From Candidatus Poribacteria bacterium (GTDB lineage Bacteria; Poribacteria; WGA-4E; UBA9662): a DNA stretch of 64,000 nucleotides. Under the pieces are notes generated by a model. The model ran no database searches, had not been told where the DNA came from, and worked only from the letters and a program-made list of their open reading frames with translations. The position numbers and the translations under genes were made by a program. The DNA is taken from the NCBI GenBank assembly GCA_046582655.1, contig JAYGDX010000089.1, positions 20,129 to 84,128 of the forward strand, read 5' to 3'. Of this stretch, positions 25,747 through 52,548 are shown in pieces; position 1 is the first letter of the stretch, and each line of letters starts with the position of its first letter.

Positions 25747-26835
25747 TTGGGAAATAAAGCGTCTTTTATTCAAAATCTAATTTTCTTTATAGTAGTTTTT
25801 CTCATTATCACCGTCAGTGGTTGTGAAGACGATGCGATAAACGAGGCCAAGCCCAAACTCGGCCAAATTGAAGGTTTGCTAAAACCAGCTGATGCTGCTA
25901 CTGAAATTCAACTGGTACAGGCAGGAAATATTGTGGCAACCACCTATCCGGACGAGAATGGAAAATACATTTTTTCTAATCTGGAATTTGGGGGCTATGA
26001 CATCATTGTTATTGCAGAAGGATACCATGTCGCATCTGAAGTCAACACCATCACACTTGATAAAGAAGTCGCTATCAAGAATTTCCAGCTTGTTCCACTG
26101 ATGGCTTCAATACGGGGAATCGTCATAGATTCTGAAGGTGCTTTTATAGAAAATGCATCAATTACGGTCTCTGCACTTGGTGATGAATTTACAACTCAAA
26201 CAGATCAATTTGGGGTTTTTTCTTTTAATCAATTACCATCAGAAGTTGGGTTGGTATTGGGAATCTTTGCAGATGGAAAGGTTGAACTTCAGGTTACAGT
26301 TGAGCCAATTGAAAAGGGAGGAACAAAAGATCTACAAATCAGTCTCAAAGAAATAGAACAGAAAATTGGTGTCGGTTCACAAGTAGGTGACTTGGCTCCC
26401 AATTTCTCATTATCTGATGTGGATGGTAAAATTGTTTCTTTGAAAGATTTCGCTAGCAAACAAACTGTTCTTCTTACCTTTCACCGTGGCAAGTTGTGAC
26501 CTGTATGCTTACCGCAGTTGGTACAACTGCTACAAAAAAATTATAATAAAATTTTAGATCTCAAAGCTGAAGTCATTGCTATTAGTCATGAATCTGTGGT
26601 CGAAAACAAGAAGATTCATCAGCAACATAAACTGAAATATCTTTCTCTATCGGATCCAACAGCAAAGACAATTCGGGACTACAAGGTGTTAGACTTTGGC
26701 AGATTTCCCAAGGTATCCTTTTTCATTGTTGATAAGCAGGGCATTATTCGTTGGCGTTCCACGCACAGTGGTGCCAATCCTGATGATTTGCCAAAGATTG
26801 ATGACTTGCTTAAGGCAATTCAGTTAGCCCAGTAA
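25747..26835 (+). CDS. Candidate selenoprotein: a lipoprotein with CarboxypepD_reg-like Ig-fold domains fused to an AhpC/TSA-redoxin domain carrying a U-x-x-C motif (in-frame TGA at 26497..26499)
   Basis: TTG start. Lipoprotein signal ...FLIITVSGC. The track ORF ends ...VLLTFHRGKL at the TGA, and the next track ORF (26518..26835) is in the same frame. Reading through gives FHRGKL-U-PVCLPQL, aligned to the FYRGxW-C-PxC redoxin motif with the TGA at the first Cys. A perfect 7-bp hairpin begins 14 nt after the TGA. Confidence 0.6.
26514..26530 (+). promoter_or_regulatory. Candidate bacterial SECIS-like hairpin (gcaguug-gua-caacugc) 14 nt downstream of the in-frame UGA
   Basis: Perfect 7-bp stem with a 3-nt loop, read directly from the sequence. 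Its position and size fit bacterial Sec-insertion elements. It has not been confirmed with a covariance model. Confidence 0.35.
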
Positions 26836-26867: not shown

Positions 26868-27378
26868 GAGAGCGTTCATTCTTATCGCTTTATTTTGTTG
26901 CTCTTTCGGTTGTTCAAACGAGACTGACAACGCTGATAATCCCAGTAATCCGGCCCAAGACTCGAATTCTCCCCTGGCGCCGGATTTCACCTTGCTCAGC
27001 ACGGACTTTAAGCTGGTAAGTTTATCCGACTATCAGGGAAAAATCGTTCTTCTTGATTTTTGGGCTACATGGTGCAAATCATGTCAAGAAGAAATCCCAA
27101 TCTTTATTGACCTATATGACCAGTACCGCGATCAAGGATTTGAGATGGTTGGCATTTCGATTGATAGTGAACGTCTTAAGGTAGTCAATCCTTTTATTGA
27201 GAAACTAGGTGTAAACTATACAATTCTCCTGGGTGAACCAAATCTAATGGACAAATACAATATTATGGCGATTCCAACTGCAGTCCTGATCGACCAATCG
27301 GGTAATATCCGTAAAAGGTTTACTGGTGCGCAACTAGACAGACTTATTTACGAAAATGAATTAAAAAAACTGCTATGA
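26868..27378 (+). CDS. TlpA/ResA-like thiol:disulfide oxidoreductase lipoprotein (thioredoxin fold, WCxxC). Start codon uncertain.
   Basis: The track ORF 26992..27378 (TTG) contains VLLDFWATWCKSCQEEIP. The same frame is open upstream back to a TAG stop at 26854..26856, so the first sense codon is 26857. That upstream stretch encodes a lipoprotein signal (LRAFILIALFCCSFGCSNE) but no ATG, GTG or TTG. The only plausible initiator is CTG at about 26868. Confidence 0.65.
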
Positions 27379-34943: not shown

Positions 34944-36411
34944 TCCATTACTGGAAATGAAATCCATTACCAAAGAATTTCCGGGTGTCCGTGCCCTAGA
35001 TCAAGTGTCATTCGCTGTTGCACACGGTGAAATCCATGCGCTCTGCGGCGAAAATGGGGCGGGAAAATCAACACTCATCAAAATCCTTGGTGGCGTTCAT
35101 CCGTACGGTACTTATCAAGGAACATTACGAATCGAAAAAAGGGATCAACAGTTCCATTCTGTCCGTGATGCAAAAAAATCGGGCGTAGCAATCATTCATC
35201 AGGAATTGACTCTGATTCCCAAGTTGACTGTTGCGGAGAATATCTTCCTCGACAGAGAACAAACCAAACTTGGAATAATTGATCATCATCAACTATATAG
35301 CGATACAAACCGACTTCCCAAAGATTTTGCTCTTGGCATACCTATTCAAACTCCCATTGAGCATCTTGGGATTGACCAATAGCAGATGGTTGAGATCATC
35401 AAAGTCCTGTCGCAGGATGCACGAGTTTTGGTTCTTGACGAACCGACTGCCGCTTTGACGGAGGCTGAAATCAAAGCCTTACTCCAAATCCTGAATCAAC
35501 TTCGAGATAAAGGAATTACCTGTATCTATAATCACCCATAAACTGAAAGAAGTATTTGCTATTGCTCTGATAGGGTAACAGTCCTACGTGATGGACAAAC
35601 TATCAGAACCCTATCAACTGGCAAAGCTAATGAAAGTCAAATTATTCAAATGATGGTTGGTCGTAAGCTGGATTACCAAAGGCAGTCGGATGATGAATTG
35701 AAAAAAGGACAGACTGACAACACCGCAGACTTGGCCTTACAGGTGAATAACCTGAATGCCTACTACGTTGGTCGTCCCCACCAAACTTATTGTTGAAAAA
35801 TATTGATTTTAGCCTTCGATACGGTGAAATCCTCGGCATTGCAGGATTGATGGGGGCAGGCAGAACAGAATTAGTCTTATCGATCTGGGGTGCGTACGAT
35901 GGAAAAGTTAAAGGTCAAATTTTGATCGATGGTATACCAGTTCGGATTAATTCACCACAAGATGCAATATCACGTTGAATAGGATTCGTCAGTGAGGATC
36001 GGAAACGATTCGGCCTGATTCTTGACGCTAATCTCGAAACTAATATGACGCTGGCAAGCCTCGATCAGATGACGCAAATGGGTATCATTGATCGTAATCA
36101 GGCATTTCATCAAACCAGCCATTATGTCGAATCCATGCAAATTAAGTCCCCTTCGCTTGAAACTGCCGCCAAAAAATTAAGCGGTGGGAATCAACAAAAA
36201 ATGGTACGGGGAAAATGGCTGATGACACAACCGAAAATTTTATTTCTTGATGAGCCTGTGGCGATTATTATAACCTCATCAGATGTTACCTGAGACTCTG
36301 GGAGTAAGTAGCAGGATTATTGTCCTTCATGAAGGCGAAATTACTGGCCAATTTACAAACCAGGAAGTGATACAGGAAGATATTCTCCAATGTGCTTCCG
36401 GAAGACATTGA
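34936..36411 (+). pseudogene. Two-domain sugar ABC transporter ATP-binding protein (RbsA/MglA/XylG-like), inactivated by a nonsense codon and several frameshifts
   Basis: The first ABC domain is intact up to ...GIDQ, then an in-frame TAG at 35380 sits where Gln is expected (LSxGxQQ-VEI). Further fragments in shifted frames read [84 protein letters not shown]...LFLDEP and VLHEGEITGQF. Confidence 0.65.
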
Positions 36412-36472
36412 CAAAAGCGTATACTCTCGTTATTATAACTCAATAAAGACAAGCTATTCCTAAGGAAGTTTA

Positions 36473-37681
36473 ATGCCTCTAATTGAACCTGACGGTGGGG
36501 AATTGATTAATCTCATCGTTCCAGAAAATCAAAGATCCGAAAAAAAATCGGAAGCTGAGTCATTGCCAAAAATGGTCATCAACGAATATCATTTGCAATG
36601 GATCCACATATTAAGTGAAGGGTGGGCAAATCCACTTACCGGATTTATGCGTGAGAATCAGTTTTTACAAACAATCCATTTTAATACCATACGGCAACCA
36701 GATGGCACGCTCGTTAATCAATCCGTTCCGATTACGCTCGATATCTCAGATCAGGATTGCGATCGTCTGCAAAACGCCGACGCAATTACACTGGCAAAAT
36801 CAAATGATGAGCCTGTGGCGATTTTACGAGATCCGGAGTTTTATACCAACCCGAAAGAAGAATACGCTGCCCGAACGATTGGATTTACGCATGTCGGCCA
36901 CCCAACGGTCGAACGAATTATGAAAATGAGTACGCAGTTGGTTGGTGGGGATCTCGAGGTCCTCAGACCAATCGTCTATAACGATGGGCTTGATCACTAT
37001 CGTCTGTCACCCGCTGAATTACGTGCAGAATTCGAAAAGCGTGGTGCAGACGCGGTTTATGCTTTTCAACTCCGAAATCCGGTTCATAATGGCCATGCTT
37101 TACTAATGAACGAAACAAAAGAGCAACTAAAAACACAAGGATACAAAAACCCTGTGCTTCTGTTGCATCCGCTTGGAGGATGGACGAAAGAAGACGATGT
37201 TCCTCTAGATGTCAGGATGCGTCAACATGGTGCAGTACTTGAAGATGGGATATTGGATCCGATCTCAACAGTTGTTTCCATTTTTCCCAGCCCCATGCTT
37301 TACGGTGGGCCGACAGAAGTTCAGTGGCACGCCAAAGCCCGAATCAATGCCGGGGTGAGTCACTACATCGTTGGGCGTGATCCCGCGGGGATAACGCATC
37401 CGGAGACGGGTGAACCTGTCTACGACCCGTTTCACGGCATGAAAGTCCTGCAGATGGCTATCGGTCTGGAAAAACTGGAAATCATCGAGTTCAAATTTGC
37501 CGCTTATGACAAGGTTTCCGGCAAGATGGGATTCTTTGACCCTAGCCGAGCTGACGATTTTCTGATGATTTCTGGTTCACAAATGCGGGAATACGCACGA
37601 AACAAAGAGACACCTCCAGATGGATTCATGGGTAAAAAGGCTTGGCAGGTTATTGCAGAATACTATGCCTCAATCAATTAG
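36473..37681 (+). CDS. sat: Sulfate adenylyltransferase (ATP sulfurylase, homo-oligomeric Sat type)
   Basis: N-terminal PUA-like region with ...WANPLTGFM. Catalytic motifs AFQLRNPVHNGHALL and GRDPAG. About 400 aa, consistent with Sat. Confidence 0.8.
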   Translation: MPLIEPDGGELINLIVPENQRSEKKSEAESLPKMVINEYHLQWIHILSEGWANPLTGFMRENQFLQTIHFNTIRQPDGTLVNQSVPITLDISDQDCDRLQNADAITLAKSNDEPVAILRDPEFYTNPKEEYAARTIGFTHVGHPTVERIMKMSTQLVGGDLEVLRPIVYNDGLDHYRLSPAELRAEFEKRGADAVYAFQLRNPVHNGHALLMNETKEQLKTQGYKNPVLLLHPLGGWTKEDDVPLDVRMRQHGAVLEDGILDPISTVVSIFPSPMLYGGPTEVQWHAKARINAGVSHYIVGRDPAGITHPETGEPVYDPFHGMKVLQMAIGLEKLEIIEFKFAAYDKVSGKMGFFDPSRADDFLMISGSQMREYARNKETPPDGFMGKKAWQVIAEYYASIN

Positions 37682-48089: not shown

Positions 48090-48276
48090 AAATGAAATGG
48101 GTATATATACATTTCAAACTTTTCCGCTTCTGATCGTTAGGATAAGTTTGCTTCATTTGATGAAATCTTGTACCATTTGTCAGTGGAGGTTTATAAACAT
48201 GATACCCAAAATTTTAGTGAGTATATTTGTGGCTTTTATAATAGCCACTCTAGACATCAGAACTGAGGAAGATAGA

Positions 48277-49182
48277 ATGAAAAATTTGAAAATTGGGATG
48301 GTTGCACCAGACTTCACTCTGATGGGAGATGACGGACAAAAGCATAAAATATCTCAGCACCTCGGCAAGAAAAACGTTGTTCTGGCTTTTTATCCTAAAG
48401 ATTTTACTGGTGGCTGAACGGCTGAACTTCGATCGCTCCGTGACGAGTTAAGTAGAATTGAGGCTACCGGGACCGTTGTTTACGGTATCAGCACAGATGA
48501 TCAGGAATCACATAAAAAGTTTAGCCAAGCTGAAGAGTTTGGGTTCTCGCTTTTGGCTGATGTAGATCATGCTGTTAGTCAACAGTATAGCGGATTGCGA
48601 GGTCAGTCTCTATCCAACCGTGTTACTTTTGTCATCGATCATGCTGGTTATATTCGTGTTATTGACAAAGAAGTTGATGTGCAAAATCACGGTTCCGATT
48701 TGGTGAAGATAATTGAGGGTACAACCCAGTACCAGATAAAAGTTGGACAACCCGCACCAGATTTTATTGCACACGATCAAGACGGCAAAACGCATCAAAT
48801 TAGTAATCTCAAAGGCAAGAAGAACGTAATCCTTGCGTTTTATCCGGCAGACATGACACCTGGCTGAACGATGGAAGTCTGTTCACTCCGGGATGAGTTG
48901 AATAATTTTGAAACTCTTGAAGTTGCCGTTTATGGTGTTAGTGTACAAAATCAAAAATCACATAAGAAATTTGCTGATAAACACAGTCTCGGATTTCCTC
49001 TGCTGGTTGATACAGGTCGTAACATCAGTTTGCTTTACCATGCAATATCAAAACCGGAAGGCAATTGCAAGCGAATCACGATTTTGATTGGGAAAAACGG
49101 TGACATTGTTCAAATTGATGACAAGGTTAGTGTTCGAAAACATGGCAGAGACCTAATTGATTTTATCAAATCTCTAAATTAA
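48277..49182 (+). CDS. Candidate double-selenocysteine tandem peroxiredoxin (two fused PrxQ/BCP-like domains; in-frame TGA at 48415..48417 and 48865..48867)
   Basis: ATG at 48277 with GAGGAAG 6 nt upstream. The read-through translation is [82 protein letters not shown]...[82 protein letters not shown]...DFIKSLN. All three track ORFs (ending at 48417 and 48867; the next ones starting at 48553 and 48871) share one frame. Both TGAs sit at the peroxidatic-Cys column of FYPxDFTPG-C-TxE. Confidence 0.65.
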
Positions 49183-49187
49183 GTGGA

Positions 49188-49781
49188 TCAACTATTTTCA
49201 AAATGGACAAAATCAATTAGAAAGACCGCGCCTAAAAGCACGCTTTTTTGATTAGGATCTGCATCCGGCGGAAATGTGATGCCGAAATTGTCGGAGTCAG
49301 TGAAGGTTTCTTTCAAAAGCCCGCTCCACTTTTTGGTAATGTGCCCAATCTCTCTTTCATCTCGGTAGATATTGAAAGTCCACGGATGAAGCAGAGGGCC
49401 AAAGAGCTGATATATTTCCTGTCCTGATGAATCTTTTACAGAGTATATTCGACGCAAAATTGAAAATTGCCTTTTAACTGTTCCGACTAACTTTCCTTGA
49501 TTATCGAAGATCTCAGCAACATGAAAATAAAATCGGAATGGTCGGTACAGTGAAAGAACACTTTCGCCTTGCATGTCCAAAATACGCATCCTGAAAGGCC
49601 GCAGTGCCTTCAAAAACCACCTCAGGAGAAAAAAGCCACCCTCTTCTGCGGCCAGGAATAGCTCTTCTCCGGATGAACTCATAACCACATAACGGTTTTT
49701 AGTTTCGAAGTTGGTAATAATTTCTCCCCATTCTTTCTTTTGCTGGATAGCGAGTGCGTTGAGCGATTCAAGCCTCTCCAT
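49188..49781 (-). CDS. Phospholipid scramblase-family / LURP-one-related-like protein
   Basis: 197 aa. It resembles bacterial scramblase-family (PF03803-like) proteins: 12-stranded barrel sequence periodicity and a C-terminal hydrophobic helix (VLLGAVFLIDFV). Weak, recall-based assignment. Confidence 0.45.
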   Translation of the reverse strand: MERLESLNALAIQQKKEWGEIITNFETKNRYVVMSSSGEELFLAAEEGGFFLLRWFLKALRPFRMRILDMQGESVLSLYRPFRFYFHVAEIFDNQGKLVGTVKRQFSILRRIYSVKDSSGQEIYQLFGPLLHPWTFNIYRDEREIGHITKKWSGLLKETFTDSDNFGITFPPDADPNQKSVLLGAVFLIDFVHFENS

Positions 49782-51762: not shown

Positions 51763-52548
51763 ATGAAACTGAGTTCCGAAGAACTTGAACATCAAGAACT
51801 GAAACCTGAAACGCTTGATCTGGCAATTCAGCAAGTAAGAGTAAACGGTTACGTTGTTTTCGAGTCAGTTCTTGATGAAAACCTTGTTGATACGCTTCGT
51901 TTCCACTTTATGGAACTTCTAAATGAATATGTGGCTAAAACCGATTCTAATCGCGGTAAAAACCGTTATCAGATGCATCTTCCTTTCGATAAGCCATTTA
52001 TTAATCCACAAGTTATTACCAACCCAATTGCCTTGTCGGTGACTGACGCTATTATTGGATCTGATTGTATCTGTCACTATCTGGCTTCTGACACACCGCT
52101 GCCCAAATCAGAATACCAGCACGTGCACTCCGACATCCATCGACTCTTTCCAAACGGAGAAACCACTCCACCATATAGCATTTCCATGAATATTCCGCTT
52201 GTGGACTTCAATCAGGAGAACGGTGCCATGGAAGTTTGGCCAGGAGGCACGCATTTGATGCCGACCGGCATTAATATGAGTCAATTATCAAAAACAATGC
52301 ATTCCGAGTTAGTCCTAATGCCAGTCGGATCTTTGCTAATTCGTGATATGCGGATGTGGCACCGTGGAACGCCGAATCGGTCTGATGCTGCCCGTCCAAA
52401 CATGGCGTTTATTTTTTCTCGTTATTGGTTCAAGACATCTTATCCGCCAATTGAAATCTCTCAGGAAACTTACGATTCGCTTTCAGATCGTGCTAAGCAG
52501 CTTTTCCGGCATGAACAGATTGGTAATGGATCGGATCCGCGTTTCTAA
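51763..52548 (+). CDS. Phytanoyl-CoA dioxygenase (PhyH) family Fe(II)/2-oxoglutarate-dependent oxygenase
   Basis: HxD...H iron triad candidates (HVHSD; WHRGTPN) and the PhyH-like N-terminal region. Confidence 0.7.
   Translation: MKLSSEELEHQELKPETLDLAIQQVRVNGYVVFESVLDENLVDTLRFHFMELLNEYVAKTDSNRGKNRYQMHLPFDKPFINPQVITNPIALSVTDAIIGSDCICHYLASDTPLPKSEYQHVHSDIHRLFPNGETTPPYSISMNIPLVDFNQENGAMEVWPGGTHLMPTGINMSQLSKTMHSELVLMPVGSLLIRDMRMWHRGTPNRSDAARPNMAFIFSRYWFKTSYPPIEISQETYDSLSDRAKQLFRHEQIGNGSDPRF

Follow-up and report, generated by a model that had tools for sequence, protein, structure and literature searches.

Two TGA codons interrupt a single reading frame on the + strand of a 64,000-nucleotide stretch of DNA from a Candidatus Poribacteria bacterium (contig JAYGDX010000089.1, positions 20,129 to 84,128; the whole stretch is called the window here), and the question raised by this locus is whether the frame represents three small genes, a decayed gene, or one gene in which both codons are read as selenocysteine (Sec). 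An earlier inspection, hereafter the sequence-only reading, had proposed a fused tandem peroxiredoxin (Prx) with a TGA at the catalytic position of each half. On the analysis described below we hold with high confidence that 48200-49182 (+) is one gene, encoding a double-Sec tandem Prx. The wider proposition, that in many Poribacteria this is an exported enzyme with two independent Sec centres, each provided with its own selenocysteine insertion sequence (SECIS) element inside the open reading frame (ORF), and that it came about by duplication of a module, is one that we regard as probable.

The frame from 48277 to 49182 on the + strand contained only two internal stops, both TGA (48415-48417 and 48865-48867), and closed with a TAA at 49180-49182. 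When the two stops were bridged, the translation yielded two AhpC-TSA/Redoxin domains (Pfam, E = 8.5e-70), and frame, stops and domains thus agreed with the proposal of one frame carrying two Prx domains, each cut by a TGA. The description of the pieces had to be amended. The first had been given as only 46 amino acids, but has 72, including a hydrophobic N-terminus, because the gene probably starts at the ATG at 48200; this start (MIPKIL...) is kept in the 84%-identical relative L092. The claim that the second and third pieces lack both an ATG and a ribosome-binding site held for the latter, none being evident at the third piece, but not for the former, as the third piece begins near an ATG at 48871. 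Standard gene callers break the gene into three ORFs; its full precursor has 327 residues. The features of the locus are listed below.

48186-48190, + strand: ribosome-binding site GGAGG, 9 nt 5' of the ATG at 48200; read from the sequence, its use presumed.
48200-49182, + strand: full read-through coding sequence, 327 codons plus TAA, made up of signal/anchor, PrxQ domain 1 and PrxQ domain 2.
48200-48276, + strand: N-terminal hydrophobic signal peptide or signal anchor, as read from the sequence.
48277-48726, + strand: PrxQ/BCP domain 1, with PxxxTxxU and the conserved Arg; the active site runs U-TAEL-R, the resolving Cys being absent in this lineage.
48415-48417, + strand: UGA 1, peroxidatic position of domain 1 (predicted Sec); TGA in 25 of 25 homologous loci and Cys in distant homologues.
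48426-48453, + strand: SECIS-like hairpin 1, with apical helix GCUC/GAGU and loop CGUGAC (48435-48448) of the family type.
48727-49179, + strand: PrxQ/BCP domain 2, with PxxxTxxU, the conserved Arg and an invariant Cys five residues after U (C202, R266).
48865-48867, + strand: UGA 2, peroxidatic position of domain 2 (predicted Sec); TGA in 25 of 25 homologous loci.
48880-48882, + strand: TGT codon for the putative resolving Cys of domain 2 (U-x4-C); invariant, and also part of the 5' arm of SECIS 2.
48881-48903, + strand: SECIS hairpin 2, GUUC-ACUC / loop CGGGAU / GAGU-(U bulge)-GAAU; the loop starts 21 nt after the UGA.

Both halves of the protein carry the catalytic motif and the Arg, set in a thioredoxin-fold Prx domain, by which PrxQ/BCP enzymes are recognised, and the top NCBIfam match was Bcp/PrxQ PRK09437 (181 bits against a cut-off of 140, summed over both domains). 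Each TGA follows P-x3-T-x2 and, in an alignment to Sulfolobus Bcp1 (3DRN, which we take to be the Cp-to-Ser mutant), falls on the peroxidatic residue of the PxxxTxxC motif, which is the catalytic-Cys column to which it had been assigned by eye. The two domains are 45% identical; the Prx active-site Pro, Thr and Arg are present in both, with U in place of C, and P40, T44 and R115 of domain 1 and R266 of domain 2 are invariant in the family. The position five residues after U is an invariant Cys in domain 2, while in domain 1 it is Arg in the window, Cys (UTAELC) in some Poribacteria and Gln, Asn, Lys or Arg in others. The structure was modelled with AlphaFold2 on the homologue P0002, standing for the window protein, and showed two Prx folds after an N-terminal helix (pLDDT 90.6, pTM 0.85), the best matches to this model in the PDB being Bcp1 (3DRN) and AhpE. 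Classical signal peptides with AxA-type sites were found in homologues, and one single-domain Cys relative has a lipobox; the tandem Prx is likely to be exported, to the periplasm or the cell envelope.

Homologues were then collected to establish what stands at the two catalytic columns. A protein search returned 17 full-length tandem homologues with 50-61% identity, all on short contigs. At the DNA level, 25 homologous tandem loci (52-84% protein identity to the window protein) were available, consisting of three distinct metagenome sequences (one of them on contigs L003 and L004), about 20 species representatives from a scan of one genome per species, and L092 from a metagenome scan. Both catalytic codons were TGA in 25 of 25 loci, and TGC or TGT occurred at none of the 50 sites; the terminal stop was mostly TAA. 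Nineteen of the species representatives are titled Candidatus or uncultured Poribacteria and one just 'uncultured bacterium'; all else that the species scan returned were Cys forms of other phyla, either single-domain or not in tandem. Across Poribacteria, a phylum found with sponges and in the sea, the tandem double-UGA gene has been conserved. Distant homologues, namely single-domain BCPs and Armatimonadota Prx-Trx fusions, have Cys at the UGA columns (FYPxDxTPGCT), and this alignment of UGA with Cys, by which bacterial selenoproteins are recognised, was seen at both sites in dozens of homologues. The answer to whether relatives carry Cys, Sec or a stop, and whether they keep the fusion, is therefore that the tandem relatives have TGA, the distant ones Cys, and the fusion is conserved.

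The same loci show that coding conservation continues beyond each UGA, the other mark of a selenoprotein gene in which the codon is kept by orthologues. For the pair formed by the window gene and L092, dN/dS was 0.17 before UGA 1, 0.18 between the UGAs and 0.13 after UGA 2 (0.17 overall), and since all three segments lie between 0.13 and 0.18, all three must be translated and under purifying selection. One tandem relative departs from the pattern: in the 200-residue protein P0019 the active site of domain 1 is lost, with FCHKDFFIDSPVA in its place, and the predicted ORF ends at FTSG of domain 2, where the second UGA presumably lies. This protein suggests that in some lineages the second Sec centre is the only one left.

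In a bacterial SECIS element the apical loop lies approximately 16-37 nt from the UGA and contains a G, and reference geometries are provided by the bSECISearch model and by the fdhF element of E. coli. The two hairpins had escaped inspection by eye; they are present and conserved in the family alignment. Codon-aligned DNA following each UGA gave one shared hairpin, starting after 12 or 13 nt, with a 4+4 bp stem, one bulged nucleotide on the 3' side and a 6-nt loop, CG(G/U)GAU, 21 nt after the UGA. At site 2, RNAalifold returned 8 pairs without a single broken cell in 24 sequences, and in a manual register of 9 pairs and one bulge 94.9% of cells were able to pair, as against 32-45% when the partner was slid by 1-3 columns. 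The window itself carries compensatory changes at site 2 affecting both arms, namely C-G to U-A together with G-C to A-U (manual register) or G-U to A-U (RNAalifold), and hairpin 2 was recovered in the window by the single-sequence minimum-energy fold. At site 1, 80% of cells pair, and in one subclade the place of the inner helix is taken by a 7-bp stem in a shifted register, CUCGCUC/GAGCGAG, which closes a larger loop. On this analysis, the geometry of the hairpins and their G-containing loops fit a bacterial SECIS.

That the approximately 40 nt after each TGA are conserved beyond the needs of the protein, as had been noted from the window alone, was borne out by synonymous constraint. Normalised synonymous entropy was 0.28 in the 13 codons after each UGA and 0.78 elsewhere (Mann-Whitney p = 9e-11), and the Leu codon of SLRD was CTC at 48 of 48 sites. 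The core CUCCGKGAY was found at 35 of 39 distinct UGA sites and at 0 of 106 Cys sites, even where the encoded peptide was equal (CSLRD), and folding z-scores were -1.44 at UGA sites as against -0.09 at Cys sites (p = 3e-11), in a comparison in which both sets of sites contain a few regex false positives.

A mechanism can be envisaged on this basis. Each UGA would be recoded by its own SECIS hairpin within the coding sequence, the hairpin recruiting SelB carrying Sec-tRNA(Sec) as in the established bacterial mechanism. Domain 2 would be expected to cycle via an intramolecular selenenylsulfide, in the manner of an atypical 2-Cys PrxQ, because the Cys at +5 reproduces the spacing of peroxidatic and resolving residues in PrxQ; domain 1 in the window lineage may instead work as a 1-Sec peroxidase that is resolved by an external thiol. 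The signal/anchor would place the enzyme in the periplasm or cell envelope, and the tandem arrangement would have arisen when a Sec-PrxQ module was duplicated within the gene along with its SECIS.

Several observations weigh against this interpretation and concern the RNA elements, the Sec machinery and the enzymology in turn. Covariation in the hairpins is thin, most pairs being invariant, and at site 2 no sequence other than the window shows a double compensatory change; shuffle controls were only marginal (25/500), and Rfam scans at gathering and at permissive thresholds returned no SECIS or other relevant RNA family, the weak hits obtained (Histone3, sRNAs) being set aside as chance. When the 66 nt after each UGA were folded alone the z-scores were unremarkable (+0.5 to +0.7), and it took the family alignment to bring the hairpins out. 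At site 1 of the window, the lower stem typical of the family is broken by substitutions, including a synonymous TTG-to-TTA change, and the family register there has -2.6 kcal/mol compared with -8.8 for an alternative hairpin with a G-less UCC loop, which is the minimum-energy fold. Read-through at site 1 may thus be less efficient in the window lineage. As regards the machinery, no tRNA-Sec was found by ARAGORN, which returned zero tRNAs in the 64-kb window and 24 homologous loci; SelA, SelB and SelD were absent among the 40 window proteins searched with Pfam, and neither sel genes nor tRNA-Sec were found in about 400 kb of homologous loci. Lastly, both export and the catalytic cycle are deduced from sequence only.

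Evidence on the Sec machinery was available from elsewhere in the phylum. Candidatus Poribacteria WGA-3G is listed with COG1921 SelA (2), COG3276 SelB (1) and COG0709 SelD (1) (PMC5649159, Table S4), and contig ASZN01000005 of the same WGA-3G (L021) carries the double-TGA gene. Poribacteria are also among the phyla with Sec-type group 4 hydrogenases (PMC13582414). Together with a second UGA-containing gene in the window, described below, these records lend indirect support to a Sec trait in the lineage.

Among the alternatives, the one that fares best, and which we still consider unlikely, accepts SelB-dependent recoding of both UGAs through the SECIS elements and differs only in the residue inserted: a tRNA(ReC)/SelC*-type tRNA would deliver Cys, and the product would be an ordinary tandem Cys-peroxiredoxin. 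Bioinformatics cannot separate insertion of Sec from insertion of Cys, and tRNA(ReC)-like tRNAs have been described in genomes with multi-UGA selenoprotein candidates, where UGA may then be read as Cys (PMC13582414); the same work does not name Poribacteria among the phyla with tRNA(ReC) in UXXU-type genomes. The conservation of the codon bears on this directly. If UGA simply meant Cys, a change of one base would free the gene from a costly SECIS and reversion should be common, yet all 50 sites have kept TGA, even at 52% protein identity, and not one has become TGC or TGT. On balance, Sec, rather than Cys, is very probably the residue at both UGAs.

Hairpin 1 is the weakest element of the tandem Prx locus, and it gives rise to a second alternative, in our view decidedly unlikely, according to which only site 2 is read efficiently in the window lineage, SECIS 1 having partly decayed so that much translation ends at UGA 1; the gene would then be losing domain 1 or be regulated by selenium supply. 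The broken lower stem described above, with its synonymous TTG-to-TTA substitution, is what such a decay would look like, and P0019 provides a tandem relative in which the active site of domain 1 is indeed lost. Of the family-type hairpin, the window retains the apical helix with its loop CGUGAC; ACUU/AAGU (48426-29 with 48450-53) may pair in place of the lower stem, or the site may adopt an alternative fold. Against such a decay, L092 keeps site 1 in a form that folds into the family-type apical hairpin. Nor is there a start codon with a ribosome-binding site from which domain 2 could be translated separately, and dN/dS in the window/L092 pair is equally low before UGA 1 and between the UGAs. 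The constraint on the segment downstream argues that read-through at site 1 still occurs, and the double-Sec tandem Prx remains the reading that we adopt for the window gene as well.

A pseudogene or a set of three small genes, in which the TGAs are real stops produced by nonsense mutation or sequencing error, is very improbable and can be taken as effectively refuted. Gene callers do return three ORFs here, and the window does hold one real pseudogene; but 25 independent assemblies, which represent different species and samples, have the same two TGAs, each placed precisely on the catalytic codon of its domain, and purifying selection acts on all segments. The sequence-only reading had already judged three separate genes implausible, and the strong coding conservation after both TGAs in all 25 tandem homologues upholds that judgement. 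The real pseudogene looks different. It lies at approximately 35300-36500 (+), corresponds to a two-domain sugar-ABC ATPase (RbsA/MglA-like), and contains several frameshifts and mixed stops, and thus serves as an internal contrast to the two precisely placed peroxiredoxin TGAs. A TGA within it, at 35976, was considered as a further recoding site, given its position on a conserved Gly (between DAISR and IGFVSEDRK), and was rejected as the gene is multiply frameshifted.

Use of UGA as a sense codon throughout the genome (genetic code 4 or 25, for Trp or Gly), to which the W shown at both columns of P0001-P0017 might point, has a negligible probability and is refuted by stop-codon usage, as had been anticipated, since TGA terminates 13 of the 40 long ORFs of the window and ends the tandem Prx gene itself in L005 and L022. 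In-frame TGAs joining long ORFs amounted to a handful in 64 kb, which is not the pattern of code 4 or 25, and, besides the redoxin TGA at 26497, these lay in the pseudogene or were without protein-family support.

The W residues merit a comment of their own. Database entries P0001-P0017 show Trp at both catalytic columns, although their own DNA has TGA and does not translate in this way under code 11; the W is thus artefactual and goes back to gene callers that applied code 4 to short contigs. Entries with W at a Sec position comprise P0001-P0017, P0051 and P0059 (loci L001-L004 and L139-L142). The family is consequently invisible or wrong in public data, appearing as three fragments in genomes and with Trp at its active sites on short contigs, and a family model would repair the annotation in many Poribacteria genomes. 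A W at a catalytic Cys column may, more generally, be a searchable sign of missed selenoproteins.

The window contains a second candidate selenoprotein gene at 25747-26835 (+), with a TGA at 26497-26499 that would place U in FHRGKL-U-PVC (UxxC) of an AhpC-TSA/redoxin domain; the product has a lipoprotein-like N-terminus and CarboxypepD_reg repeats. Here too the loop, 21 nt downstream of the UGA, belongs to a hairpin, which in this case is a perfect 7-bp one, GCAGUUG-GUA-CAACUGC. Both the TGA and this hairpin are present in near-identical marine contigs (L089-L091), while a relative of about 81% (L085, L088) has TGG at this column and a frameshifted upstream part, and database homologues are fragments only, split at the TGA codon. 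This candidate is less secure than the tandem Prx, because the TGA is shared only by near-identical contigs and the 81% relative has TGG. Directly 3' of it, at approximately 26870-27378 (+), lies a gene for a TlpA/ResA-like thioredoxin-fold CxxC lipoprotein in the Cys form (WATWCKSC). From their sequences, the two genes look like a small envelope thiol-redox cluster, and the TlpA/ResA-like protein could be a reductant for exported peroxiredoxins.

The surroundings of the tandem Prx gene itself were also analysed. Synteny among 20 Poribacteria loci revealed no conserved redox partner beside the gene. Its neighbours in one Poribacteria subclade (loci L012-L023) are housekeeping genes, with which it forms a conserved block in the order GFO/IDH/MocA oxidoreductase, PhyH-like dioxygenase, tandem Prx, 204-residue membrane protein, YebC, RuvC, RuvA, RuvB, QueA and YajC. 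The context in the window differs, with a scramblase-like gene and tgt, and a PhyH-like gene nearby at 51763-52548. The scramblase-like gene (49188-49781, - strand) encodes a bacterial homologue of the scramblase family (Pfam PF03803, E = 6.6e-51), a family better known from eukaryotes, and is convergent on the peroxiredoxin gene. An imperfect GC-rich inverted repeat at 49225-49252 (+), about 45 nt after the TAA and followed by CTTTTTTG on the + strand, lies inside the 3' end of this convergent gene; the peroxiredoxin gene may have in it a weak terminator, and our scan flagged the repeat only on the - strand. The promoter and terminator scan gave nothing above background. The window has a GC content of approximately 42%, near-identical contigs stem from Tara and other marine metagenomes, and its aspartyl-tRNA synthetase shares 90-92% identity with proteins listed at NCBI under 'Candidatus Poribacteria bacterium'.

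Sec peroxidases are generally faster than their Cys counterparts and harder to over-oxidise. Poribacteria are prominent sponge symbionts and also live freely in the ocean, and the conservation of an envelope peroxidase with two Sec centres suggests that they rely on selenium to defend themselves against peroxide from outside. If the double-Sec reading is true, the gene provides a test case for the efficiency of two SelB-dependent recoding events on one mRNA, and its near-duplicate SECIS pair a convenient natural system in which to study and engineer multi-Sec insertion; to go by the selenoprotein table of a 2026 review (PMC13188914), few bacterial ORFs seem to hold two UGA/SECIS pairs so far apart. 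The locus would also show that a Sec codon and its SECIS can duplicate as one unit.

The closest relatives with a single Sec are secreted single-domain UGA-PrxQ proteins from bacteria of 62-65% GC, P0051 and P0059 (locus L139, 673-1215, and locus L142, 446-988). They are 45-49% identical to the window protein over about half its length, and have in common with the tandem family a signal peptide and the motif FTGG-U-T.E.CSLRDELS (U-x4-C); their SECIS core, UGCUCGCUCCG(G/U)GAUGAGCUGAGC, is identical and stands at an equal distance from the UGA, in spite of a base composition that differs strongly from that of the window. They differ in having one domain and one Sec. As these single-domain relatives have the same hairpin, the tandem would have arisen by duplication of a Sec+SECIS module, and genes of the P0051/P0059 type are, from their sequences, the probable ancestral form.

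Among characterised enzymes, the PrxQ/BCP proteins (E. coli Bcp and Sulfolobus Bcp1, 3DRN) resemble the window protein in fold, in motifs and in the C-x4-C spacing of domain 2, but are single-domain Cys enzymes and mostly cytoplasmic, whereas the window protein has two domains with U in both. PrxU of Eubacterium acidaminophilum (NCBIfam NF040737) likewise has Sec at the peroxidatic position and is, to our knowledge, the only Sec-Prx with biochemical backing. It belongs to the AhpC/Prx1-like branch, whereas the window protein is PrxQ/BCP-like (its best structural matches being Bcp1 and AhpE), tandem and furnished with an export signal. The window protein scored 103.9 bits with the PrxU model (cut-off 270) and 34.5 bits with the Thiol peroxidase Prx-SUH model NF045827 (cut-off 298), and is a member of neither.

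Selenocysteine-containing peroxiredoxins as such are, as had been stated at the outset, a known selenoprotein family, and the table of PMC13188914 includes Prx (PF00578, TxxU) with one Sec as well as several unrelated double selenoproteins. The tandem form is absent from that table, in keeping with the initial impression that two Sec centres in fused Prx domains are at least unusual. Earlier ocean and symbiont surveys report Prx fusions and neighbouring selenoprotein genes, not the tandem two-Sec form, and no tandem, double or fused Prx or sponge-symbiont selenoprotein of this architecture was found in the open-access papers searched; the tandem two-Sec Prx is thus apparently an unrecorded architecture of the Prx family. 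With the Sec-Prx family (PxxxTxxU, PMC13188914) it shares the Pfam domain, Sec in place of the peroxidatic Cys, a SECIS within the ORF just after the UGA and an abundance of Cys homologues, and it differs in having two full Prx domains, each with its own UGA and SECIS, behind a signal/anchor. MbdU, TsoB and the UxxU Prx-like oxidoreductases (PMC13188914) resemble it in carrying more than one UGA-encoded Sec per bacterial polypeptide. Judged by their names, motifs and Sec counts, however, those types have two Sec close together in one motif or unlike domains fused to one another, whereas the window protein has two equivalent centres 150 codons apart, each with a duplicated SECIS.

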